DNA of 64,000 nucleotides from Candidatus Limnocylindrales bacterium (GTDB lineage: Bacteria; Moduliflexota; Moduliflexia; Moduliflexales; JAUQPW01): the NCBI GenBank assembly GCA_035559535.1, contig DATMBG010000042.1:62001-126000 (forward strand). The letters run 5' to 3'. The notes under the pieces are model-generated. The model saw only the letters and a list, made by a program, of their open reading frames with translations. It was not told where the DNA came from and searched no databases. This document shows, in pieces, positions 26,342 to 54,166 of this stretch. The first letter of the stretch is position 1, and each line of letters opens with the position of its first letter. Position numbers and translations under genes: made by a program.

Positions 26342-27112
26342 TTATTGGTTCTTCCATATGGGTCGTCGTTTTTCCAGGAAGGCTTTTAATCCTTCTTCGG
26401 CGTCGTGGGTTTTCATCAGAGTATTCAGGTAGAGACCTTCAATGGAAGGTAAAGTTTCTTTCCAGGGAGATATGGCTCCGCACACAAGCGCCCGTTTAGC
26501 CAGTTTTAACCCCACAGCACTTTTATCGATTAAACGATTGATAAGATCCGTGGTTGCCTTTTCCAACTCCTCAAAGGGTACCACCTGGTTGATCAGACCT
26601 AATTCTCTGGCTTCATAGGCCGAGATAGGGTCTCCGGTCAGAAGTAGTTCGGAAGCTTTTTTATATCCTATTTGGTGGGGCAACAGAGCCGAAGCAACAG
26701 GAGCAAAGATCCCCAGTTTGATCTCTGGTTGTCCGAAAACAGCTTCTGAAGCAGCGATGGCCAGGTCACAACAGGCCACCAACTCACAACCACCTCCCAG
26801 GGCCATTCCGTTCACAACGGCCAACGTAACGGCCTCCACCTGACTAAGTGTCTCTACCACCCTATGAACCTTCTGGATCATGGCCTCAACTTTGTCGGGG
26901 AGGTGGTCCTTGATATCCACTCCTGCCGAAAAGGCTTTATTTCCACTTCCGGTTAAAATCAAAACCTTAAGTTGAGGGTTTCCCCGAGCCAGATCCAACG
27001 CGCTATGAAGCTCCTCCAGGGTCATTAAATCCAGAATATGAAGGGGTGGTCGATTCAAGACAATTCGGGCTACAGGAGGTTCTATTTCGAACTGGATACA
27101 CTTAAAATCCAT
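26342..27112 (-). CDS. Enoyl-CoA hydratase family protein resembling cyclohexa-1,5-dienecarbonyl-CoA hydratase (Dch/BamR)
   Basis: LNRPPLHILD, FSAGVDIKDH, GGGCE, GQPEIKLGIFAP, YLNTLM.THDAEEG. Confidence 0.8.
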   Translation of the reverse strand: MDFKCIQFEIEPPVARIVLNRPPLHILDLMTLEELHSALDLARGNPQLKVLILTGSGNKAFSAGVDIKDHLPDKVEAMIQKVHRVVETLSQVEAVTLAVVNGMALGGGCELVACCDLAIAASEAVFGQPEIKLGIFAPVASALLPHQIGYKKASELLLTGDPISAYEARELGLINQVVPFEELEKATTDLINRLIDKSAVGLKLAKRALVCGAISPWKETLPSIEGLYLNTLMKTHDAEEGLKAFLEKRRPIWKNQ

Positions 27113-27265
27113 CTTTGACCTGAAGAACGGAAGAGCCAGAGAAGATAAGATTCTTTCCTTCCCCCCCTACTTCCATACTTCCACACTCCCATACTCCGTA
27201 TTTACTTCTTGTATGTCGTTATCAAATCCAAAAATCCGAAACTTCCATACTTCCATACTCCGTAT

Positions 27266-27619
27266 TTACTCCCACTCCAGAGCTCCTTTCTTCCAGGCAT
27301 AAACGAGTCCGGCCACTAACATGAGGAGAAAGACGATCATCTCGACAAAACCAAATACACCCAGTTCACGAAACACCGTTGCCCAGGGAAAAAGGAAAAT
27401 GATCTCAATATCGAAAAGGATAAAAAGTATGGCTACAATGTAGAATTTAACAGGGATCCGGACCACCGAGGTTTGAAGGGGTTGAACCCCACTTTCAAAG
27501 GGTTCCAGTTTGGCCTTGGTGAGTCTTTTGGGTCCTAAGATTGAGGTCAATAACAGAAGTCCTCCGGCAATAAGCGCGGAAAAGAGAGCCAGAATGAGGA
27601 CAGGAATGTATGTATTCAT
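27266..27619 (-). CDS. nuoA: NADH-quinone oxidoreductase subunit A
   Basis: KLEPFESG, FYIVAILFILFDIE, YAWKKGALEWE. Confidence 0.95.
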   Translation of the reverse strand: MNTYIPVLILALFSALIAGGLLLLTSILGPKRLTKAKLEPFESGVQPLQTSVVRIPVKFYIVAILFILFDIEIIFLFPWATVFRELGVFGFVEMIVFLLMLVAGLVYAWKKGALEWE

Positions 27620-27628
27620 CAGAAAGAG

Positions 27629-27800
27629 GTATAGGAGTGTGGAGGTGGGGGATATGGGGGTATGGGAGTGTGGGGGTGGAGGAGTATGGAAGTGTGGAGG
27701 CGTGGAAGTATGTGAGAATTTACCTCCATACCCCCTCCCTCCCTACTCCTATGCTCCCATGCTCTCACACTTCCATACCCCCCCACCTCCACACTCTTAT
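27629..27800. repeat. 8-nt-periodic G-rich/C-rich inverted repeat; related tracts at 27165-27262, 30948-31016, 34645-34725, 51292-51403 and 55331-55373
   Basis: Arrays of gtatggga/gtgtggag followed by complementary cccatact/ccacactt units. Confidence 0.8.
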
Positions 27801-27804
27801 TCCC

Positions 27805-28362
27805 TTAGGGTTCCCAGATCGTTTCCGGTTGACCGGCTCGTTGGTTAACCAGGCGAGCCAGGACGAAAAGCAAATCTGAAAGTCGGTTTAGATACTTAAT
27901 GATTTCCTTATTGATGTCGTGGTTCTGTGCCAGGGTCACCACGCGACGCTCCGCCCGGCGGGAGACCGTTCTGGCAAAATGGAGGTAGGCCGCGCCGGGA
28001 GTCCCACCCGGTAAGATAAAGCGGGTCAAGGGAACCAGTTCCGCTTCGCATTGATCGATCCATTCTTCTAATCGGGTTATCTGTTCCGGTACAATACGGG
28101 GTATGGGTTTTCGAGCTTCCAGCTTTGGTTGGTTAAAGGGAGTTGCCAGATCCGCACCTACCTTAAATAGTTCCGATTGAATGTTCTCCAGGATATTTCG
28201 AATTTGGGTATCGGTTATAAAGGATACGGCCAGTCCCAAAACCGAATTAAGCTCATCTACGGTTCCGTAGGCTTCCACATAGGGGGAATCTTTCAGAACA
28301 CGTTCCCCACCGAATAAACCTGTTTCCCCTTTATCTCCGGTTCGTGTGTAGATTTTCATCAT
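27805..28362 (-). CDS. Cob(I)alamin adenosyltransferase, PduO type
   Basis: [40 protein letters not shown]. Confidence 0.95.
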
Positions 28363-29252
28363 GGGATTTTAATGTCCAACAACTCCCGGTGTTGGTTGAC
28401 CTGCTCATCGGCATGATAGGAGCTTCTAACAAGAGGACCGGATTCCACATGCCGGAATCCCATCTCTTCCCCTCGAGCTTTTAGCATTTTGAACTCATCC
28501 GGGTGGTAGTATCGAACAACCGGGAGATGTTGTTGGGAGGGTTGGAGGTATTGACCTAAGGTTAAAATGTCACACTGCACCCCACGTAAATCTGACATCA
28601 CCGCATAAACTTCTTCGATGGTTTCTCCGAGGCCCAGCATAATTCCAGTTTTGGTTACAAACCCCTGGGTTTTGGCCCTTCTTAACACCTCCAGGCTCTG
28701 TTGATAGTTCGCCTGAGGCCGAACTTTACGATATAATCGAGGAACCGTCTCGACGTTATGAGCTAAGATATCCGGCCTGGCCGCTAAAACGGTCATCAAA
28801 GCTTCTTCAGAGCCTTTAAAATCAGGTATCAAAACCTCAAGGGTGCAGGTCGGGTTTGCCTGTCGAACCCGGCGAATGGTCTCGGCCCAGATAGAAGAAC
28901 CTCCATCCTTCAGTTCATCCCGATTAACCGAGGTTATCACCACATGCTTCAGTCCAAGTTTACGAATTGCCTCGGCGACCCGCCGGGGTTCGTCCCAGTC
29001 TACTCCCAGCGGTCGACCGGTCGGTACATCACAAAAACCGCAACTCCGGGTGCAAATATTCCCCAGAAGCATAAAGGTAGCAGTTCTCCGATTCCAACAT
29101 TCCCCAATATTGGGACAGCTGGCACTCTCACAAACCGTGTGGAGCTTGTGGTCTCGAACCAGCTTTTTAAGCTCAAAGAAATTTTCACCTTGAGGCATCC
29201 GAACCTTGAGCCAGGGTGGATGCTTCCTTGCTTTAGGTGGACTTATTTCCAT
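28359..29252 (-). CDS. lipA: Lipoyl synthase
   Basis: [24 protein letters not shown]. Confidence 0.98.
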
Positions 29253-29357
29253 ACTTTCTCAACCTTTAGTAGGTCAACCGTCACCGGTTGATAATCCATA
29301 AGTAACAATCAGCGATTAACAGTTTTTGTTTATTGTTCATTGCTGACTGTTTACCGC

Positions 29358-30044
29358 TTAGGATTCGTAGTATTCCGGGTACTCGCGTTCGGCAATTTTA
29401 CCCGGTTCAATAGGGTTTATCAACAAATTCAGGGCATCTTTAATAACCTTCTTGTGAAGTTCCTTCTGTCCGGGTTTACCGACCGAGTGCCCTATTTTAA
29501 ATCCCTTGGGACTAAGGGCCCTGGAAGGCCTTCCCATATGTGTCTGCTCTTTATCCGTTGTGATTAAAACCGATGGAATGGCCATCATTTCCAAAGCCCG
29601 CTGAATCGACACAACTGCGCGATGGCATAAAGGTCACCCGCCCGTCATCAGGGTAATATCGGCCCGGCTATTCTGGATCTGCTTGACAATTTCTGGAATG
29701 GTTTTCTCACGGACCTCTCTAAAAGCCTGGGTATAGCCCATGCTGATATGAATTTCAGAAACCGCACCGATAAATTTTTCCTGGGCCAGTTCTCTCAGGC
29801 GATCTATAGGGAAAACGCAGTTAATATCCTTATCTGCATCGGAATGGTCGTAGTGTCCGTGGGTGATCCTGAGATCTCGGCTTTCTACATTTCCTGGAAT
29901 TATACGAAAACTTGTATCTCCATCTAAAATAAAAGGAGGCTGGTCTTTCAAATGCACACCGGCCGTACTGACCAGTGCCACTTTACTTTCTTCAAGCTTA
30001 CCGGTAAAGGGTGTGTAAGGAATACACAAACGGGAGATTTCCAT
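29358..30044 (-). CDS. prdB: Selenoprotein B of the glycine/betaine/sarcosine/D-proline reductase family (PrdB-like), 228 aa, Sec at codon 137
   Basis: ORFs 29634..30044 and 29358..29612 are in frame across TGA 29634-29636: TGG-U-PLCHRAVVSIQRALE; VALVSTAGVH, GDTSFR, HGHYDH, DINCVFPIDRL. Confidence 0.9.
29605..29623 (-). promoter_or_regulatory. Putative bacterial SECIS hairpin
   Basis: AUCG-CGC-AGUU-GUG-U-CGAU; loop starts after a 17-nt spacer from the UGA, has G at loop position 2, and the stem has a bulged U. Confidence 0.6.
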
Positions 30045-30119
30045 TTCTTTTAAAGTGGGTAGTAAGCAACAGGTTATAAACCTCTGCCCTTTGGCGCTTA
30101 TCTTTTTAATATCCCTTGC

Positions 30120-30941
30120 TTAGCGCCCACCTGCCCTTTGCCTGAGTTTCTCAACAAAACTATAAGGGATCGCCCGCATACCCATGGGGGTACCGCCACC
30201 TCGCTCCCCGTGATAATCGGAACCTCCACTTTCCAGGAGATGGTATCTTTGGGCCAGTCTGGCATAATGTTGAGGATCTCCCGGGAAGTTTTGAGGAGGG
30301 ATCGTTTCAATCCCATCCAGTCCTTTTTTTGCCAATTCCGGAATTATTCCATCCTGGTTATAGCAGCCGGGATGGGCCAATACCGAGACCCCTCCAATGG
30401 ATTGAATCAAAGCTATTCCTTCTTCGGGACTTAGGGGATACTTTTCTGCAAAGATCGGTCCCTGATCTCCGAGATATTTTTGAAAGGCTTCTTCATAGGA
30501 GGTTACATAACCCTCCTCGACCAGGACCTCGGCGATATGCGGTCGGCCAACCACTCCAGATCCTGCTTTTGTCAGAACCGATTCGATTCGAATCGGAAGA
30601 CCCTTCCGATTGAGTTGGGCAATCATTTTTTCTACCCTTCGGATCCTTCCGATTTTGAAAAGTTCCAGATAGTCCAGGAATTTCTGATCCTTATAATCGA
30701 TAAAGTATCCGAGTATATGGATATCCTTACCTTGATAGGTAACACTCAGCTCTACCCCGGGTATTACCTCGATTCCCAGTTCCTTGGCAACAGCCATGGC
30801 CGGATCAATACCACTTACGGTATCATGGTCGGTGATGCTGATGGCCTTCAAATTAGCCAACTTGGCTCGTTTTACAACCTCCTCAGGCGTGGAAGTTCCG
30901 TCCGAATGGACGGTATGTACATGTAAATCTGCCAGTTCCAA
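30120..30941 (-). CDS. PHP domain phosphoesterase (TrpH/YciV-like)
   Basis: DLHVHTVHSDG, ITDHD, GVE, HILGY, GRPH, LAHP, GGSDYHG. Confidence 0.93.
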   Translation of the reverse strand: MELADLHVHTVHSDGTSTPEEVVKRAKLANLKAISITDHDTVSGIDPAMAVAKELGIEVIPGVELSVTYQGKDIHILGYFIDYKDQKFLDYLELFKIGRIRRVEKMIAQLNRKGLPIRIESVLTKAGSGVVGRPHIAEVLVEEGYVTSYEEAFQKYLGDQGPIFAEKYPLSPEEGIALIQSIGGVSVLAHPGCYNQDGIIPELAKKGLDGIETIPPQNFPGDPQHYARLAQRYHLLESGGSDYHGERGGGTPMGMRAIPYSFVEKLRQRAGGR

Positions 30942-31064
30942 CAGGAAAGTATGGGAGTATGGAAGTAGGAGCGTGTGGGAGGTAGAGTCTCCCCTCCCCC
31001 TCCCCTACTTCCACACGTTTCGTGGACCTTTACCCACTGCCTATCACCCGGTGGTTTCCGTTTT

Positions 31065-32522
31065 TTACACGGCGAGCGTCATGGGATTTTCCAGAATTTT
31101 CTTCAATTCCTGTAAAAACTTGGCGGCGGTGGCGCCATCGGTAACCCGATGATCGCAGGATAGGGTCACTTTCATACGATGGCCGACTCGAATTTGGCCT
31201 TCCACCACCACCGGTTTTTCCTGGATCGAGCCGACGGCCAAGATAGCCCCTTCCGGGGGGTTAATAATTGCAGCAAAGTTCTCCACATCGTACATACCCA
31301 GATTGGAGATGGTAAAGGTACTACCGGTATATTCTTCGGGTTTTAATTTTTTCGATCGAGCCTTTTCGGCCAGATCTTTGGCTTCTCGGGCAATTTGCCC
31401 CAGGCTTTTAACCTCGCAATTTCGGATCACCGGGGTTATTAATCCATCTTCCAGAGCGACCGCTACACCGATATGGATTCCTTTATAAACTCTGATCTTA
31501 TCGCCTGCAAAGGAAGCATTCAATTGGGGATATTTCATAAGGGCTTTGGCTACGGCTTTAATAATCAGGTCGTTAAAGCTGATTTTAAGGTCTTCTTCCA
31601 GCTCGTTGACTAATTTGCGAAATTCCATCGCCTTCCCCATATCGATTTCTGATGTGATATAAAAATGGGGGACAGGCCCTTTGCTTTCGGCCATTCGTCT
31701 GGCGATGGTTTTTCGCATCATAGTCAACTCTTTTTCTTCGAATTCCGCAGGTGCAGGGGCAACCGGTACTTCGGGGGTAACTTCTATTTTTCCAGGCACC
31801 CATCGCGGTGGACGTTCTGGCTCATAAGAAGGTATTTTTTCGGCCCTTTCCATAAACATCTCGATATCCCGTTTGATCACCCGACCCAGGGGGCCACTTC
31901 CCTTTATTTGAGAAAGATCGAGTCCTAAGTTCTTGGCCATTCTTCGAGCCATGGGGGAAGCTTTAACATGTTCTGGCTCTTCTTCCATTTCCGTCAGTTC
32001 TTCAGCACTTCCAACTTCAGGTTTTTTAGCGGCTTCCATCTCGTCCGCTCTTCCCCCCTTCATTACTTCGAGGTGGCGTTTTTTCTCCCGTTCCCCTTCT
32101 TTGATTTTTTCTGGCTCTTCAAATTCTTCGGCCTCTTTAACTTGTGTTCTTTTCTCCTGCCTGGTCTCTACCACCTCGGCAGGTTTTTCAATTTCTCCAG
32201 CACCTCTCCTCGGGGTAGGACTTTCAGCTTTTCCGGCTTCTTTCTGCCCTTCTCCTCCGGGAAGTAAGCTGGAGATATCCTCATGGGGTTCTGCAATAAT
32301 TGCAATCAACTCCCCCACCGGAGCGGATTCCCCTTCCTTTTTAAGGATCTTTTTTAAAATCCCTGAGGCGTAGGCTTCCATTTCTAGATTGGCTTTATCT
32401 GTCTCGATCTCAGCGATGACGTCCCCGCTCTGAACTTTGTCCCCTTCTTTCTTCAGCCACTTGACAATCACCCCTTCCTGCATCGTATCGCTGAGTTTAG
32501 GCATTGTAACTTTACTTGCCAT
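31065..32522 (-). CDS. pdhC: Pyruvate dehydrogenase E2, dihydrolipoamide acetyltransferase
   Basis: One lipoyl domain (ETDKA), binding domain ASPMARR...GSGPLGRV, DHRVTDG. Confidence 0.96.
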   Translation of the reverse strand: MASKVTMPKLSDTMQEGVIVKWLKKEGDKVQSGDVIAEIETDKANLEMEAYASGILKKILKKEGESAPVGELIAIIAEPHEDISSLLPGGEGQKEAGKAESPTPRRGAGEIEKPAEVVETRQEKRTQVKEAEEFEEPEKIKEGEREKKRHLEVMKGGRADEMEAAKKPEVGSAEELTEMEEEPEHVKASPMARRMAKNLGLDLSQIKGSGPLGRVIKRDIEMFMERAEKIPSYEPERPPRWVPGKIEVTPEVPVAPAPAEFEEKELTMMRKTIARRMAESKGPVPHFYITSEIDMGKAMEFRKLVNELEEDLKISFNDLIIKAVAKALMKYPQLNASFAGDKIRVYKGIHIGVAVALEDGLITPVIRNCEVKSLGQIAREAKDLAEKARSKKLKPEEYTGSTFTISNLGMYDVENFAAIINPPEGAILAVGSIQEKPVVVEGQIRVGHRMKVTLSCDHRVTDGATAAKFLQELKKILENPMTLAV

Positions 32523-32605
32523 GTTTCTAGAGACCGGAGGCCGGAGGCTGGGGGTTTGTAAAGACTCCGATCCCCGACCTCAAGCCCCAAGTCTCAAGAT
32601 ATCTT

Positions 32606-33586
32606 TTAGTCAAAGTATAAGACCTTTTTGACGGCTTCTATAACCCTCGCTTTATTGGGTATAGTGGCCATTTCTAAATTCTTCGCATAGGGCATGGGAA
32701 CGTTTCTCGCTGCTACCCGCTCGATGGGAGCATCAATATAGTCAAAAGCCTTACGGTAGATAATCTCCGCAATCTGAGCCCCAAATCCTCCAAATTCCCA
32801 ACCTTCTTCAACAATCACCGCCCGGTTGGTTTTACGAACCGAGTTAAGAATTGTGGTTTCATCCAAGGGCCTCAAAGTCCGGGGATCTACAATTTCTACC
32901 TCAATACCCTCTTTAGCCAATTCTTCAGCCGCCTCCATAGCCAGGAGGACCATTTTGGAATAAGCTATAATGGTTACATCGCTCCCTTTTCTTTTGATAT
33001 CGGCTTTTCCAAGGGGAATGGTGTATTCTCCTTCAGGAACTTCCCCTTTCGTACCGTATAACAACTCCCCTTCGATAAAAATAACGGGATTATCATCCCG
33101 GATGGCACTTTTAAGTAAGCCTTTGGCGTCCTTAGGGACACCCGGCATAACGACTTTGAGTCCCGGGACATAACAAAACCAGGTTTCCAGGGAGTGGGAA
33201 TGCTGGGCTGCCAGTGAATGGGCAGCTCCTCCAGGGCCTCGGATCACCATGGGGATCTTAAACTGTCCTCCCGACATGTATCGAATCTTAGCCGCACTGT
33301 TTACAATCTGATCCATGGCCACGATAGAGAAATTAAAGGTCATCATTTCGATGACTGGTCTCAATCCTACCATAGCTGCACCGACTCCTACCCCGGTAAA
33401 GGCCTCTTCGGTGATAGGGGTGTCAATGACCCTTTTTTCTCCAAATTCTTCTAGTAAACCCTGGCTGACTTTATAGGCTCCTTGATAGAGACCTACCTCC
33501 TCTCCCATGAGAAAAACCCTTTCATCTCGACGCATTTCCTCTCGAAGAGCCTGGTTGAGTGCTTCTCGATAAGTTATAACCGGCAT
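32606..33586 (-). CDS. pdhB: Pyruvate dehydrogenase E1 beta subunit
   Basis: YREAL, GEEV, DTPITE, AAQHS, DPRTLRPLD; start reset to MPVIT. Confidence 0.96.
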   Translation of the reverse strand: MPVITYREALNQALREEMRRDERVFLMGEEVGLYQGAYKVSQGLLEEFGEKRVIDTPITEEAFTGVGVGAAMVGLRPVIEMMTFNFSIVAMDQIVNSAAKIRYMSGGQFKIPMVIRGPGGAAHSLAAQHSHSLETWFCYVPGLKVVMPGVPKDAKGLLKSAIRDDNPVIFIEGELLYGTKGEVPEGEYTIPLGKADIKRKGSDVTIIAYSKMVLLAMEAAEELAKEGIEVEIVDPRTLRPLDETTILNSVRKTNRAVIVEEGWEFGGFGAQIAEIIYRKAFDYIDAPIERVAARNVPMPYAKNLEMATIPNKARVIEAVKKVLYFD

Positions 33587-33661
33587 GTGGAAATACTCAG
33601 GCGTAAGGCGAAAGGTCAAGGAAACTTTTCCTTTCACCCTTCGCCTTGTCCCTTTCGCCTT

Positions 33662-34615
33662 TTAGGCGTAAACATCCTCATACAACCATTCTTCAGGTGG
33701 TTCCGGACTCTTTTCCGCAAACTCTACAGCTTCCTCCACGATGGCTTTAATCTCTTTTTCCATTTCTTCAAACTTCTCTTCGGAAAGAATCCCTTCCGCG
33801 ATGAGTTTCTGCTTAAAGGTGACAATAGGATCTCGTTTCCTTTGTTCGTTAACTTCCTCTTTTGTTCGATATTGAGCAGGATCCGACATGGAATGTCCCC
33901 GGAAGCGGTAGGTTCTAACTTCCAGAAAAGTAGGTATTTTTTCATGTCGGGCCCGTTCTACGGCTTTACCAACCTTCTCCCAAACCTCTAATACGTTCAT
34001 TCCATCCACAAGCTCGCCGGGAATATCGTAGGCTTTGGCCTTCAAGTACATCTCCGGACCGGCCATGGCACGGGTTACTGCAGTTCCCATTCCATAGAAG
34101 TTATTTTCACAGATGTAAATGACGGGAAGCTTCCACAAAGACGCTAAATTCAGAGATTCATGGAAAACTCCTGTATTTACAGCTCCATCTCCAAAAAAGC
34201 ACAACACAACCTGATCCTTCCCCTCGTAGTTGATAGCAAAGCCAACGCCTGTAGCCAGAGGAATATGTCCTCCTACGATGGCATGTCCCCCCAGGAAGTT
34301 TCTTTCCGCATCAAAAAGATGCATGGATCCACCCTTTCCACGTGAAATTCCCGTGGCCTTTCCAAAGAGCTCGGCCATGATCTTTCGAGGTTCGGTTCCT
34401 ATCGCCAAAGCATGTCCATGCTCCCGGTAAGAAGCTATCACATAATCATCCTTTCGAATGGCCGCAATAGCACCCACTGCTACCGCTTCTTGACCAATAT
34501 AGAGATGGCAAAATCCACCAATTTTACCCATCATATACATCTCTGCGGCTTTTTCTTCAAACCGCCGGATGAGTAACATCTGACGATACATTTCAATTAA
34601 TTTTTCACTGTCCAT
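33662..34615 (-). CDS. pdhA: Pyruvate dehydrogenase E1 alpha subunit
   Basis: GGFCHLYIGQEA, GKGGSMH, GDGA...ENN, YRFRGHSMSDP. Confidence 0.97.
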   Translation of the reverse strand: MDSEKLIEMYRQMLLIRRFEEKAAEMYMMGKIGGFCHLYIGQEAVAVGAIAAIRKDDYVIASYREHGHALAIGTEPRKIMAELFGKATGISRGKGGSMHLFDAERNFLGGHAIVGGHIPLATGVGFAINYEGKDQVVLCFFGDGAVNTGVFHESLNLASLWKLPVIYICENNFYGMGTAVTRAMAGPEMYLKAKAYDIPGELVDGMNVLEVWEKVGKAVERARHEKIPTFLEVRTYRFRGHSMSDPAQYRTKEEVNEQRKRDPIVTFKQKLIAEGILSEEKFEEMEKEIKAIVEEAVEFAEKSPEPPEEWLYEDVYA

Positions 34616-34877
34616 ATGCGTTCTATGTTGCTAAGATTGAGGGTTGTTGGTGGGATGGTGTGGTAGGGGAGCGGTGGGGTAGTGTTCCCATCCCATAACC
34701 CCACAACCCCATAACCCCACAACCTCACTGACTACCCGCTACTGCCAGAACCGCATCCATAATCCTGGTATATCCTGGGCCGAGGCCTTATTTAAAGTAC
34801 TCAATTTTTCTTGAATAATGACCTGATCTATCCATGTCCCTATCTAAAGGGACCACTCCTGATCTTTCTTACTTATT

Positions 34878-35066
34878 CTATGGGATATAGTTTAATTCAG
34901 AAACCTTTGTTAAATCAAGGAAGTAATCGGAGTTCAGAGCCTTTCTTCCCATGGGTAATCCTAAATCCATTCCACCGACTAAAGCCTTCACATGCCGGGG
35001 AGACATATCCGGCAGGGAGAAAATCTCTTGAATCCTGTTAGATCGCAGGTATTGAAAATTTTTCAA
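34878..35066 (-). pseudogene. N-terminal relic of a xanthine/CO dehydrogenase-family FAD-binding subunit
   Basis: MKNFQYLR...VKALVGGMDLG...FLDLTKVSELNYI matches the F.Y.RP...AK.LAGGTDL...LIDL..I.EL.YI pattern; stops after 62 aa. Confidence 0.55.
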
Positions 35067-35129
35067 TGGGAACTCCCTTCCTTATCCCCCTTCCGGGGTA
35101 AATTTTTTATAACCCAACCCCTTAACCCC

Positions 35130-35362
35130 CTAGGTGCCAGGCTAAGCTGAAAAGCCCATCAGGGGCCAACAGTGGGTAGCCTCCGGCGAAAATTCGGAAG
35201 ATTCAGAAATTCAGAATTTTTTCAAGCTCCCCGGTAGTGTCCTGTTAAACAGGTCGCCTCGCTGGGACTTAGAGGAGGATAGAATCCTGCCTCCCCTGAC
35301 TTACGCCAGGGGCTATCCACAGGTTGCCCCGCCGGGGCTAACCTTCTTATCCTGGTACCTAG
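35130..35362. mobile_element. MITE/REPIN-like palindromic element
   Basis: Ends ctaggtgccaggctaag ... cttatcctggtacctag are inverted (2 mismatches), CTAG at both ends; inner pair gtgggtagcctccggcg / cgccaggggctatccac. Confidence 0.6.
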
Positions 35363-35835
35363 ACCCCCTAATCCCCTTCCCAATGCGGAAAGGGGAACAC
35401 GGGGATGGCCCGAATCCCCACTCTCCCCTCCCCCTCCAGGGAAGGGAAGTCGAAGGGGTCAGGCTCAAAAAACCTATTCCAGAAAGCCCCTTATCCCAGG
35501 ATCAACATAGGGTTAGTTCTCCATACCCTTGAACCTCGGGTCAGTATTTTATCTTATTTTTAATGGAAAAAAGGTCAATTATAATTTAACCTTTCAAGAG
35601 GTTGTGGGCCAATAAATTTTTAACCATAGGAAGGTGGGCGAAGAAGCAAAGTTTTATTTGCGGGAAATACAGGAAGTAGAGAAAGGAACAGGAAGGATCT
35701 GGCGTCGAACCCAGACCTGGTAGCAGGAATTACCTTATCCGGGATCGACTACCAGTTACATAACCCCCGAGGATTCTTTCCATAGACCTGATGAGAAAGA
35801 TACGTATTTCCTCTCATACCTGTCGAAAGACAGGA

Positions 35836-36708
35836 TCAGGTTTCTACTTTTTCTTTGACCTGATCCGGAACTTTGACCTTATACATCTTGCGAAGTCGCT
35901 GGATGGCCGCTTCCTTAATCTGTCGAACCCGTTCCCGGGAGATTCCCATCATTTTTCCGATTTCCCTTAATGTCATCGGTTCCTGACCCTCTAATCCAAA
36001 GTAAAGCTTGATCACCTGAGCCTCTCGCTCCCCTAATTTGGATAAAGAATGGTTGATAGACTCCCGGGTCATGCTTTCATCCACCATTTTATCGGGAAGA
36101 TGCCCGTCTTCATCGGATATAAAATCTATGAAACTGCTATCCTCATCGGTTGTTAAAGGGGAGTTTAAAGAGAGGTGTGGCTGAAACATGGTAACCGCCT
36201 CTCGAACCAGTTCGGGATCTATACCCATGGCTTCCGCGACTTCTTCATCATCGGGTTCACGACCCAGCTCTTGGGTTAAAGCGTTTAACTTTTCATGGAT
36301 CTTCGAAAAAGACCAGGCTCGCTTGATGGGAACCCGAACGATTTGAGATTGATCGGCGAGGGCTTTAAAGATACCTTGCTTAATCCACCAGACAGCATAG
36401 GAAATGAACCTGGCGTCTTTGGTTTGGTCGAATCTTTTAACCGCTTTAATGAGACCCATGTTCCCCTCGCTGATAAGGTCTGAAAGAGGTAATCCTAAAT
36501 GTCTATATTTTTTGGCAATACTTACTACAAACCGTAAGTTAGAAGTAATGAGTTGATTCGCAGCTACTTGATCACCCCTTTTAATTCGCTCACTCAAATT
36601 AATTTCCTCTTCTCGACTCAGAAGAGGATAATGACTGATTTCCTTAAGATATTGGTCGAGTAGAGTGGTAGAACCCGGAGAACCAACAGCTAACTCATCT
36701 TTCATCAC
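35836..36708 (-). CDS. Sigma70-family factor (RpoD/RpoS-like, lacking region 1.1)
   Basis: YLKEISHYPLLSREEE, NLRFVVSIAKKY, DLISEGNMGL, YAVWWI, TLREIG...SRERVRQI. Confidence 0.95.
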   Translation of the reverse strand: MMKDELAVGSPGSTTLLDQYLKEISHYPLLSREEEINLSERIKRGDQVAANQLITSNLRFVVSIAKKYRHLGLPLSDLISEGNMGLIKAVKRFDQTKDARFISYAVWWIKQGIFKALADQSQIVRVPIKRAWSFSKIHEKLNALTQELGREPDDEEVAEAMGIDPELVREAVTMFQPHLSLNSPLTTDEDSSFIDFISDEDGHLPDKMVDESMTRESINHSLSKLGEREAQVIKLYFGLEGQEPMTLREIGKMMGISRERVRQIKEAAIQRLRKMYKVKVPDQVKEKVET

Positions 36709-51272: not shown

Positions 51273-51437
51273 AGGTTTCTATCCCCGAAGGGTATGGGGG
51301 TATGGGGGTATGGGGGTATGGGAGTATGGGAGTATAAGTAATTATTCTCCCACACTCCCATACTCCCATACCCCCATACCCCCACACTTTCCCACTCCCA
51401 TACCTTTCATAGCCCTTCGGGGAGGCTCTGTCTCTTT

Positions 51438-52940
51438 TCACCTGAGTTCTCTTTTGAGAATTTTACCTGTAGGCGTTTTGGGTAGAGATTTTCTGAACTC
51501 GATATAACGAGGTATCTTATATCTGGCCAGTTTTTCCATACAATATCGTCGGATTTCTCGTTCAGTCAGGGCAGCACCTTCTTTAAGGACGATAAAGGCT
51601 TTGGGTACCTCTCCGCGCTGTTCATCCTTTACCCCGATCACGGCACATTCTACTATCTGGGGATGGGAGAGCAGGACCTCTTCGATCTCCCTGGGGTATA
51701 CGTTGATCCCTCGTACCAACAGCATATCCTTCTTTCGATCTAGAATGTAGAGATACCCATCTTCATCAAGCTTTCCTATATCTCCCGTTAATAACCAGCC
51801 ATCTCGAAGGACACTTTGAGTTGCTTCAGGTAAGCGGTAATATCCAAGCATGACATTGGGGCCTTTAACGGCGATTTCTCCTTCCTGTCCCACCGGAAGA
51901 TCATTTCCTTCTGCATCGACTATCTTGACCTGAACCTGGGGTATAGGCAGGCCTACCGAACCTACCTTTCGGACCCCTTCTAACGGGTTAACCGAAACAA
52001 CCGGAGAGGCCTCCGATAAACCATAGCCTTCGAGCAACGGAGCTCCGAATTTCTTCTCTATCTTTTCAATGGTTGCCGCCGAGAGTGGAGCCGAACCCGA
52101 GATAAAAGCCCGAATGGCATGAAGATATTTAACAATCCAGGGTACTTTTCTCTCGGCCAGAATATTGAAAACCGCCGGAACCCCTACAAAAATGGTCACA
52201 CGGTCCCATAAGATGCTCTTTTTTATTTCCTCCAAGGACTTTACCGATTCCAACAGGATGATTCTGGCTCCCCCATATATGGGGGCTAAAACACAAACCG
52301 TAAAGGTAAAGGCATGAAAAAGTGGTAAAAACAACAGGAACCTATCCCTATGGGAAAATTTAAATGCCCGGATGCAACTCTCGATATTTGAATACAGATT
52401 CTTATGGGACAACATAACTCCCTTGGGATGACCGGTTGTACCAGAGGTATAAATTAAAACGGCCAGATTCTCAGGATTTAGCTTTTTTCCCGGAGATACA
52501 GGGAGTTCAGCTTCCATTAACCTGTTCAACGAAAGAAATTCTTTCGAGTCGTCATCCATCAAGATTGTGTATTTTAATGACAACACCTGAGGTAGTATGG
52601 GTTGAAGGGTTTCTAAAAATTTTTTAGAAGTAATTATCGCCTTGAGCTGGCAATCATTCATAATATAGGCCAGCTCTACGCCGGTCAGAAAAGTGTTAAG
52701 AGGAACGACAACTCCTCCGGTTTTAAGAATGGCGAAATAGCTGATAATATATTCCGGCTTATTCTCAAGAAGTATACCAACCTTGTCCCCTTCCTGTACA
52801 TCCCGTTTAAGAAGAGCCTGGCTTAATCGATTGACGGCTTCATCCAGTTGCTTAAAGGTTATTTTTTGCTTGCCGAATTTAATCGCTATGTGATGCGGGA
52901 ATCTTTCGGCAGTTTCTTCCAACATCTGACCTAAGATCAT
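51438..52940 (-). CDS. Long-chain fatty acid-CoA ligase (tandem paralog)
   Basis: YTSGTTGHPKG, EGYGLSE, TGD, LPKTPTGK. Confidence 0.93.
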   Translation of the reverse strand: MILGQMLEETAERFPHHIAIKFGKQKITFKQLDEAVNRLSQALLKRDVQEGDKVGILLENKPEYIISYFAILKTGGVVVPLNTFLTGVELAYIMNDCQLKAIITSKKFLETLQPILPQVLSLKYTILMDDDSKEFLSLNRLMEAELPVSPGKKLNPENLAVLIYTSGTTGHPKGVMLSHKNLYSNIESCIRAFKFSHRDRFLLFLPLFHAFTFTVCVLAPIYGGARIILLESVKSLEEIKKSILWDRVTIFVGVPAVFNILAERKVPWIVKYLHAIRAFISGSAPLSAATIEKIEKKFGAPLLEGYGLSEASPVVSVNPLEGVRKVGSVGLPIPQVQVKIVDAEGNDLPVGQEGEIAVKGPNVMLGYYRLPEATQSVLRDGWLLTGDIGKLDEDGYLYILDRKKDMLLVRGINVYPREIEEVLLSHPQIVECAVIGVKDEQRGEVPKAFIVLKEGAALTEREIRRYCMEKLARYKIPRYIEFRKSLPKTPTGKILKRELR

Positions 52941-53102
52941 GTTAACCTTTATATTTCTCCTGAAAAAGATTTATATTTGGTTATACCCTATAGCTAAGGA
53001 ATTAAATTAAGATAAGATTAAATAGAGTTATTAACAAGAAGTCAAGGAGAAAATTTGAAAGGCCTGAGAACCTTCTTGTCCCTGAGGCATTTTGTTTTCT
53101 AC

Positions 53103-53131
53103 TTGACAGATCCGGGTCGTTATTATATTCT
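53103..53131 (+). promoter_or_regulatory. Putative sigma70 promoter
   Basis: TTGACA-17 bp-TATTCT. Confidence 0.55.
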
Positions 53132-53209
53132 GTTTCAAGACTATAGGGAGACAAGATTATCAAGATTATAGGGAGAAAGGTTTAACTATCGGGAAAGGGA
53201 GTTAACATC

Positions 53210-54166
53210 ATGGGTATTTCTGCCGAAGATAAAGGTAAAGGAAAACGCATTATCATGCAGTTTTTTAAAACCATGGCTCACGTACAAAGAGCCCTTTTAG
53301 TCCTTTTTGAGAAGGACGAGTATCAGGGAATTCAACGTCTGTTGCTGTTGTTAAATCCTGAAAGTAAAGTGGAAATTGACTCGATTGACAACCTGCGCAG
53401 AGGGCTAAGCATGATTTTGCAACATATTTACTCCCTCCCCTTTGAGGATAAAGAAGGGCATTTTCTGGAATTGATGCGATGTAAATCCCATCAGGAAGTC
53501 CTCCAAAAAGAAAAAGCGGCTTTTATTGATTATTTTCTGGGCAATCAGCCCGTGTTCAAGAGTTATTTAAAACAAGTTGCCGTGGAGGATGGAAACTATT
53601 ATGTTTTCAATCAAATTTGTAAAGAACTTCTCAACCGTCAGGAAGAAGTGAAAGACTTAAGGACTTTTAAAAGCAGCCTGAGGGATTTGCAGAATATATT
53701 GGCCAGGCGCATGGCTAATGGAAGTAGTGAGGAAGCTATTCTGGAGGATTTAAAAAAGAAAGTTAAAGAAGCCCCTGCTTCTGGATCTGTCTCGATTCCC
53801 AAACCAGGGTTCTCTGCCTTAGAACTCGTTCCCGACAATAAATCTCCCCATACCGGTGAAGAGGCCGGTAAATATAACTCTTCCCTGGTATCTGAACGTG
53901 CCCCATCGCTTTCCCTACAGCCTCCTTCTGAGGAAGAAAAACGCCGGGCCATAGAAACGATTCTGAATGGACCTAAGTATGAACCCCTTCGAAGGCTTCT
54001 ACTTAAAACGGTTGTAGAAGATCCCCAATTTCATACTTTTCAAAGTTATCTCAATAATATCCTGCCTCCGCCAGAACGGATTGTGGCCAGAGATTTAGAT
54101 TCCTTTTCTAAAGGTCTCCAGAGGATTAAAGAATTCAGAGATAATCTGGAAAGGGAGTTAAGTTAG
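53210..54166 (+). CDS. Hypothetical helical protein
   Basis: 318-aa ORF with RBS and promoter; no family motif recognised. Confidence 0.75.
   Translation: MGISAEDKGKGKRIIMQFFKTMAHVQRALLVLFEKDEYQGIQRLLLLLNPESKVEIDSIDNLRRGLSMILQHIYSLPFEDKEGHFLELMRCKSHQEVLQKEKAAFIDYFLGNQPVFKSYLKQVAVEDGNYYVFNQICKELLNRQEEVKDLRTFKSSLRDLQNILARRMANGSSEEAILEDLKKKVKEAPASGSVSIPKPGFSALELVPDNKSPHTGEEAGKYNSSLVSERAPSLSLQPPSEEEKRRAIETILNGPKYEPLRRLLLKTVVEDPQFHTFQSYLNNILPPPERIVARDLDSFSKGLQRIKEFRDNLERELS

Follow-up and report, generated by a model that had tools for sequence, protein, structure and literature searches.

The stretch analysed here (hereafter the window) comprises 64,000 nt of a Candidatus Limnocylindrales bacterium (assembly GCA_035559535.1), taken from contig DATMBG010000042.1 (C42) with window position 1 at C42:62001. 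Across positions 28359-34615 it carries six co-oriented minus-strand genes that, by the list of open reading frames (ORFs) and by Pfam and NCBIfam models, encode the E1 alpha (pdhA), E1 beta (pdhB), and E2 dihydrolipoyl acetyltransferase (pdhC) components of pyruvate dehydrogenase (PDH), a PHP-domain phosphoesterase, a PrdB-like selenoprotein, and lipoyl synthase (lipA), a gene order that an earlier note on this DNA had already read correctly. That note further proposed that the selenoprotein may exchange electrons with the lipoyl arm of E2, in what would be an undescribed system. Our analysis instead makes the locus a variant, specific to this lineage, of a protein family that is known but uncharacterised and has a peroxiredoxin as its conserved partner. 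The best explanation, to which we assign a probability of roughly 55%, is an ordinary PDH-lipA cluster into which this lineage inserted the PHP gene together with a selenol/thiol oxidoreductase that partners a peroxiredoxin.

The peroxiredoxin emerged from the gene neighbourhoods of the family. Relatives of the PrdB-like protein numbered 680 in a word-index search and 574 in a scan of GTDB species genomes, and from the latter we took the 80 closest loci (50-56% identity) with up to 9 kb on each side. When the neighbouring genes of these loci were clustered, one partner spanned phyla: a short peroxiredoxin of the AhpC/TSA family, which by tblastn lay within 1.5 kb of the PrdB-like gene in 71 of the 80 loci and at 1.8-3.2 kb in three more, while the examined DNA of the other six contained none. 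It was usually encoded on the same strand, 17-300 nt upstream, and convergently in some Ktedonobacteria. According to their record titles, the loci belong to Acidobacteriota, Chloroflexota, Myxococcota, Nitrospinota, and Methylomirabilota. The peroxidatic residue of the partner was encoded by TGA, i.e., as selenocysteine (Sec), in 57 loci (motif WTPV-U-T) and as cysteine (Cys) in 16, with no copy in 6 and partial coverage in 1. No second conserved Cys was found in the alignments, and homologues carry the public names "mycoredoxin-dependent peroxiredoxin" or "peroxiredoxin." Judged by its sequence, the partner looks like an AhpE-type one-Cys/one-Sec peroxiredoxin, which, as it has no conserved second Cys, would need an external resolving partner. 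Among 12 annotated loci from several phyla, no reductase gene recurred beside the pair.

The present genome encodes an ortholog of this partner, a Sec-peroxiredoxin at C42:30193-30681 that is 57.6% identical to an acidobacterial one. The two genes are not adjacent here: The peroxiredoxin gene lies 61 kb upstream of the PrdB-like gene on the same contig (48 kb in the congener), after nuoG/H/I-like genes and a gene for a CCG-domain protein, and before genes for a Clp ATPase and a thioredoxin-reductase-like protein. Within the phylum, both genes occurred in the same two of nine GTDB genomes, and one of the seven genomes lacking the PrdB-like gene showed a distant Sec-peroxiredoxin match only; in evolutionary terms, this co-occurrence is one observation only. 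Rooted on a paralogue, a quick maximum-likelihood tree nested the window protein with rows from Nitrospinota and Myxococcota that are peroxiredoxin-linked (SH-like approximate likelihood ratio test, SH-aLRT, 87).

Two side observations concern the peroxiredoxins. The genome is rich in selenoproteins, with two PrdB-like Sec genes and four peroxiredoxin genes that have an in-frame TGA at the peroxidatic position (C42:30193-30681, C10:79457-79930, C22:224809-225282, and C44:137367-137795; C numbers denote contigs), in a phylum of nine GTDB genomes. Furthermore, the peroxiredoxin or the pair repeatedly adjoined complex I (nuo) genes (loci L022 and L024, and C42:22000-30700). A Methylomirabilota locus had NuoB-like and Fer4 genes as such neighbours, a Nitrospinota locus had a NuoN-like gene, and the present genome has the nuoG/H/I-like genes mentioned above, with a lone nuoA after the window cluster; these cases are too few to judge.

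That the PrdB-like gene encodes a single selenoprotein is secure. Under translation table 11 the gene falls into two ORFs (136 and 84 aa), whereas reading through the TGA yields one 228-aa protein with the motif GG-U137-PL-C140-HR. The TGA aligned with an invariant Cys/Sec column of 120 homologues, a column kept in 121 aligned sequences. Pattern scoring of this column in the 80 closest loci gave 58 TGA and 18 Cys codons, and the 4 rows left unscored also showed TGA, yielding 62 Sec and 18 Cys forms. Downstream of the TGA, the reading frame was conserved to a shared C-terminus, and the congener retains the same in-frame TGA. Beyond the codon, we found a hairpin resembling a selenocysteine insertion sequence (SECIS) that was common to 15 Sec-form homologues, with 10 consensus pairs, 2 of which showed compensatory changes; one pair is mismatched in the window copy. 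The genome encodes SelA (622 bits) and SelB (408.6 bits), both above cut-off, so that the in-frame UGA, the downstream hairpin, and the SelA/SelB machinery expected of a bacterial selenoprotein gene are all present. A true stop, with the gene split or decaying, would agree with the two table 11 ORFs, with the unremarkable stability (z 0.10) of the 71 nt that follow the TGA when these are folded by themselves, and with an Rfam scan of 29300-30100 that returned no SECIS family and only two snoRNA matches at chance level. We consider it barely credible in view of the position of the TGA in the Cys/Sec column, its recurrence in homologues and congener, the conserved downstream frame, the compensatory changes in the hairpin, the presence of SelA and SelB, and the four Sec-peroxiredoxin genes of this genome.

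Despite its public label, the selenoprotein is not a subunit of proline or glycine reductase. Its clade is widespread and PrdA-independent, and comprises proteins of ~230-240 aa that carry a (U/C)xxC(H)R motif. Against the PrdB equivalog model TIGR04483, it aligned end to end (model positions 20-232 of 238) but scored 180.8 bits, under the cut-off of 300, as did a paralogue on contig C10 (188.1 bits). It shares the UxxC redox motif of PrdB (U137-P-L-C140) and is 41.9% identical to the genuine PrdB of a Terrisporobacter glycolicus plasmid (locus L209), where the gene stands in a prdC-prdA-(small ORF)-prdB operon. By length and coverage it also departs from GrdB, GrdF, and GrdH, having 228 aa versus ~430 aa, matching their C-terminal half only (~221-425 of 431), and scoring 41-45 bits with GrdB-type models whose cut-offs are 65-800. 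Its best 120 homologues (~240 aa) were 50-58% identical, and the word-index search returned full-length relatives at no more than 58% together with one 136-aa fragment at 94%, presumably from the same genus. With about 50% identity or more, the (U/C)xxCHR motif, and the conserved His/Asp-rich motif HxHYDHxDADxD, the protein bears the marks of the peroxiredoxin-linked clade, which has no curated model.

The pyruvoyl partner of the reductases was sought in the whole genome, as the earlier note had proposed. The PF09338 model for PrdA/GrdE gave no match in the genome (95.8% complete), and the control genomes of that search likewise gave none; with Terrisporobacter PrdA as a single query, which did find itself in the locus it came from, tblastn showed nothing at E <= 0.01, either in the genome or across the 80 homologue loci. 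For PrdC, tblastn returned only weak matches (25-26% identity), one of them among the nuo genes of C42. The description of a solo UxxC selenoprotein without a pyruvoyl partner thus holds up, given the conserved TGA, the failure to find PrdA/GrdE, and the score under the PrdB cut-off. One might still suppose a true PrdB/GrdB-type substrate reductase subunit with an unrecognised pyruvoyl or carbonyl partner, citing the full-length similarity and 41.9% identity to PrdB and the HxHYDHxDADxD motif, to which no role is assigned. With PrdA/GrdE found neither in the genome nor in the homologue loci, PrdC matches weak, the equivalog score too low, and a peroxiredoxin as the conserved neighbour, we regard this as very improbable.

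Variation within the family was noted in two places. The C10 paralogue (C10:4290-4955; locus L011, 4122-5006) has an A-U-GLC motif and is 38-40% identical; it directly follows a PF04199 "putative cyclase" gene and uvrB, and its long ORF needs two more TGAs read through, with an unclear start. Acidobacterial members of the clade (L025-L098) carry U/C-P-N-V-C-H-R, with one extra residue between Sec and Cys compared to the U-P-L-C-H-R of other phyla.

Structure prediction was compatible with a redox role without pointing to a specific relative. In an AlphaFold2 (AF2) model of the PrdB-like protein with a predicted local distance difference test score (pLDDT) of 95.9, U137 comes after strand 130-135 and at the N-terminal end of helix 138-153, which, as modelled, is the usual geometry of a redox-active pair. 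A family profile found no PDB chain at E <= 0.01, Foldseek found no PDB match at E <= 0.001, and a search of the ESM Atlas with a Cys-form homologue gave no usable match; the best wide VIA-align hit (Z 9.1, to LacI-type sugar-binding cores) was inside the background for generic alpha/beta folds. As predicted, the protein forms an alpha/beta sandwich of a generic kind, without a specific PDB match. For a natural Cys/Cys pair of peroxiredoxin and PrdB-like protein (L040), complex prediction gave a score of 0.00 against a mark of 0.32.

The linkage to pdh and lipA, which the earlier note had read, together with the missing E3, as a possible lipoyl-linked system, proved to be confined to one genus. 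The synteny survey set beforehand as the test of this idea found the PrdB-like gene in 2 of the 9 GTDB genomes of the phylum, namely this genome and its congener, which are 97% identical and share an identical gene order, while the lipA loci of five other genomes of the phylum had none of these neighbours. Among the 80 closest PrdB-like loci, none contained E2, lipA, the E3 dihydrolipoamide dehydrogenase (Lpd), PHP, PduO, or nuoA (E <= 1e-5), and four had distant E1-like genes several kb off. Conversely, none of the 80 closest E2 loci, drawn from metagenome contigs, contained a PrdB-like, PHP, or peroxiredoxin gene; Lpd followed in 34 of them and lipA was nearby in 9. In two of these loci (L138 and L155), lipA directly followed E2, with no Lpd match in the examined DNA. 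On the simplest history, an ancestral cluster of the order pdhA-pdhB-pdhC-lipA received the PHP and PrdB-like genes by insertion in this lineage. We rejected the idea that these two genes form a mobile unit, as a PHP homologue occurred in 0 of the 80 PrdB-like loci.

The absence of E3 from the cluster has an ordinary explanation. As stated in the earlier note, the window contains neither lpdA nor prdA/grdE. A genome-wide search, however, located lpdA at C39:16385-17764 (TIGR01350, 572.9 bits), standing alone beside genes for M16 peptidases; the genome thus does not lack an E3. The E1 alpha, E1 beta, and E2 proteins all score above their cut-offs, and E2 retains its E3-binding domain. Seven E2-type genes occur in the genome, none near any Lpd-family match. 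Since lpdA stands alone, none of the E2 genes of this genome is near Lpd, the E3-binding domain is kept, and L138 and L155 show the same layout, pdhABC-lipA without E3 is a recurring, ordinary arrangement, in which E3 would be encoded elsewhere and shared among complexes.

Two further TIGR01350 matches lie on C42 before the window, at 52117-53493 and 33899-34528. We considered the former, 8.5 kb before the window, as a nearby E3 and rejected it: It is part of a MerT/MerB-type cluster and more likely a MerA-like reductase. This mercury-resistance-like cluster (C42:49000-58200; L120) encodes a MerT-thioredoxin fusion, a redoxin, a DUF302 protein, the MerA-like flavoprotein, a glucodextranase-like protein, and MerB. 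Scoring 414 bits against the lipoamide dehydrogenase cut-off of 408.8, the flavoprotein is an example of over-calling by TIGR01350.

How might the protein act on its partner? We infer a redox relay, and its direction, along the following lines. Peroxide would oxidise the selenol (or thiol) of the peroxiredoxin; U137 of the PrdB-like protein would then attack the oxidised peroxiredoxin, C140 would resolve the mixed bond to an internal selenenylsulfide, and a cellular dithiol system would re-reduce the latter. Resolution to an internal selenenylsulfide is the chemistry ascribed to the Sec/Cys pair of PrdB. Because the partner Sec-peroxiredoxin sits 61 kb away, the PrdB-like gene most likely came to lie next to E2 and lipA through a rearrangement that need not carry any functional meaning.

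A first alternative keeps the lipoyl arm in play: The PrdB-like protein might draw electrons from the dihydrolipoyl arm of E2 and either feed the Sec-peroxiredoxin or provide another route of lipoyl re-oxidation or repair. Its gene does lie exactly between E2 and lipA, in their orientation and set off by short spacers, and is kept there in both genomes of the genus, although two genomes 97% identical say little about retention. The annotated loci offer no recurring reductase as the upstream reductant of the clade, and D-proline reductase can use dithiols, dihydrolipoate among them, in vitro, a property for which our literature search found no paper. A precedent exists in mycobacteria, where, in the passages on the peroxynitrite reductase/peroxidase system in two papers, reduced lipoate on the E2 protein DlaT powers AhpD, which reduces AhpC (PMC12995895, PMC12028322). 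We nevertheless hold this alternative to be unlikely. The linkage occurred in none of the 80 PrdB-like and none of the 80 E2 loci, Lpd is present, E2 has an E3-binding domain, and the C10 paralogue lies in an unrelated context (cyclase, uvrB). Moreover, E2 and the PHP gene are set apart by a strong hairpin made of a repeat: On the transcript, this spacer folds at -53.5 kcal/mol (z -3.2, 0 of 200 shuffles equally stable) into a hairpin of ~60 nt. The adjacency, within one genus, makes electron exchange with the lipoyl arm conceivable. By analogy, lipoyl-E2 may be entertained as an upstream donor for the family, albeit as a rather doubtful candidate. More specifically, the split of the pair and the re-insertion of one gene could reveal this donor, with electrons running from E2 lipoate through U137/C140 and the one-Sec AhpE-like peroxiredoxin to peroxide; we would call such a scheme quite improbable, and the same caution applies to its supply side, where either E1 turnover or Lpd with NADH would charge the E2 lipoate.

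Several points also weigh against the explanation that we prefer, an ordinary cluster with an inserted peroxiredoxin partner. The PrdB-like gene is co-oriented with its neighbours, the spacers being 24, 83, 123, 75, and 105 nt in order from pdhA through lipA, with short flanking spacers (the last three). A terminator scan of 27000-36000 found no terminator-like site in the E2-PHP, PHP-PrdB-like, or PrdB-like-lipA spacers. Given the same orientation, the short spacers, and the lack of such a site, co-expression of the PrdB-like gene with E2 and lipA is possible, and insertion into an operon can mirror function. The partner is not adjacent in this genome, and the lineage may have given the PrdB-like protein a new role. 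The tree came from a quick search in which long branches meet, and its support is weak (SH-aLRT 87). The 80 loci come mostly from two phyla, and one mainly acidobacterial clade takes up 52 of the tree's 81 ingroup rows; with two phyla and one large clade so dominant, far fewer than 71 observations are independent. The PF09338 search lacked a positive control, and the one-query tblastn was of limited reach. Finally, our literature searches found no paper linking PrdB-like proteins to peroxiredoxins, and we infer the putative partner role from gene neighbourhood alone.

Table 1. Features of the window around the PrdB-like gene (window positions; E2 domain positions in amino acids).
Feature	Position	Strand	Basis or remark
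Repeat copy	27155-27270		
nuoA, lone, downstream of PduO-type gene	27266-27619	-	
Repeat copy	27628-27804		
PduO-type cob(I)yrinic acid a,c-diamide adenosyltransferase	27805-28362	-	TIGR00636, 226 bits (cut-off 108)
lipA, lipoyl synthase, 297 aa	28359-29252	-	TIGR00510, 395.3 bits (cut-off 310)
PrdB-like selenoprotein, 228 aa	29358-30044	-	read-through translation; TIGR04483, PF07355
SECIS-like hairpin, begins 7 nt past UGA	29599-29627	-	RNAalifold consensus; coordinates counted by hand
In-frame TGA, Sec codon 137	29634-29636	-	aligned with invariant Cys/Sec column
PHP-domain phosphoesterase, TrpH/YciV-like, 273 aa	30120-30941	-	PF02811
Palindromic repeat, 8-nt period, E2-PHP spacer (repeat copy)	30948-31016		repeat families D2/D3, I16
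pdhC/E2, dihydrolipoyl acetyltransferase, 485 aa	31065-32522	-	TIGR01349, 458.2 bits (cut-off 445)
E2 lipoyl domain	aa 4-76		PF00364
E2 E3-binding domain	aa 186-221		PF02817
E2 catalytic domain	aa 260-484		PF00198
pdhB, E1 beta, 343 aa from GTG start	32606-33637	-	NF006667, 540.2 bits (cut-off 321)
pdhA, pyruvate dehydrogenase E1 alpha, 317 aa	33662-34615	-	TIGR03182, 498.6 bits (cut-off 393.9); PF00676
Repeat copy	34650-34723		
Repeat copy	51292-51387		

Around this core (Table 1), the PduO-type adenosyltransferase gene lies downstream of lipA and overlaps it by 4 nt; the genome gave one lipA match. The best NCBIfam model for the PHP protein was NF041577 (3',5'-nucleoside bisphosphate phosphatase), at 195.3 bits under a cut-off of 400. 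Over 27000-36000, we counted 9 promoter-like and 14 terminator-like sites versus 10.4 and 11.3 in shuffles, which is uninformative.

Intergenic spacers of the window contain repeat units of 8-nt period (GTATGGRA/GTGTGGAG and their complements), built as long imperfect palindromes. Kin of the E2-PHP repeat occurred at ~177 loci genome-wide by a loose pattern, and contig C42 held 18 repeat arrays compared to 0 in each of 5 shuffles; these dispersed repeats resemble repetitive extragenic palindromic (REP) elements. Reading the copies that flank the PHP-to-PduO block as scars of its insertion was rejected, as the same repeat recurs at the ~177 loci. The PrdB-like-lipA spacer (29253-29357, 105 nt) also folds stably, into a hairpin (-28.7 kcal/mol, z -3.35, 0 of 200 shuffles equally stable), here with no following U-tract.

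The family is abundant in public data. In the passages that treat selenoprotein families, two metagenome catalogues of aerobic surface-ocean samples count "proline reductase PrdB" (pfam07355, UxxC) as one of the most abundant (PMC1088965, PMC2398784), with 42 PrdB sequences in the Sargasso Sea set (PMC1088965) and, in the Global Ocean Sampling (GOS) set, 235 PrdB selenoproteins and 110 Cys homologues (PMC2398784). The GOS paper, in its text, reports Prx/SelW and other gene pairs (PMC2398784); we found no mention of a Prx/PrdB neighbourhood in the texts of the two papers, supplements aside (PMC1088965, PMC2398784). Reviews, in their sections on PrdB, treat it solely as a D-proline reductase subunit (PMC13188914, PMC9312934). 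Our literature searches returned no experimentally tested function for the PrdB-like clade, and no paper on a link between PrdB-like proteins and lipoyl groups.

For this locus, the main outcome is a correction: Neither the absence of E3 nor the pdh-lipA setting is out of the ordinary, and the neighbourhood, striking as it is, is specific to one lineage. The label "D-proline reductase (dithiol) PrdB," used by some public sources, implies Stickland-type fermentation where no PrdA is found, and gene callers cut PrdB-like genes in two at the UGA. The pair of peroxiredoxin and PrdB-like protein at the family level is the more interesting object than the window locus. If the proposed role is true, the recharging of one-Cys peroxiredoxins by such proteins would fill a gap, as the reductant of AhpE-type enzymes outside actinobacteria is unclear. 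The value of the locus itself lies in a testable hint of lipoyl-E2 as a possible upstream donor.

Compared with known systems, the window protein resembles PrdB, the 26-kDa selenoprotein subunit of clostridial D-proline reductase, in size, fold family, and a UxxC motif with Sec, yet differs from it in its score (180.8 versus 300 bits), in that no PrdA and no prdC-prdA-prdB operon were found, and in its relatives, which by their names belong to Acidobacteriota, Chloroflexota, Myxococcota, Nitrospinota, and Methylomirabilota and are not amino-acid fermenters. The PrdB family of the ocean catalogues is, like the window protein, defined by pfam07355 and UxxC, and may share its clade; in their passages on it, the catalogues call the family proline reductase and report no partner (PMC1088965, PMC2398784). 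The pdhA-pdhB-pdhC-lipA clusters without an adjacent lpd (L138, L155) have the same E2-lipA order as the window, whereas none of the 9 E2 loci with lipA nearby has a PHP or PrdB-like gene between E2 and lipA. The mycobacterial Lpd-DlaT-AhpD-AhpC system, going by the part of its description that concerns this route, is the only documented case in which a PDH E2 lipoyl arm feeds a dithiol adaptor that recharges a peroxiredoxin (PMC12995895). If the improbable relay from E2 lipoate were true, it would be a selenium-based, independently arisen analogue of that system, with a GrdB-family adaptor that has neither a thioredoxin nor a CMD fold. AhpD is a CMD-family CxxC protein and the PrdB-like protein a GrdB-family alpha/beta protein, so that the likeness would be one of analogy, not homology.

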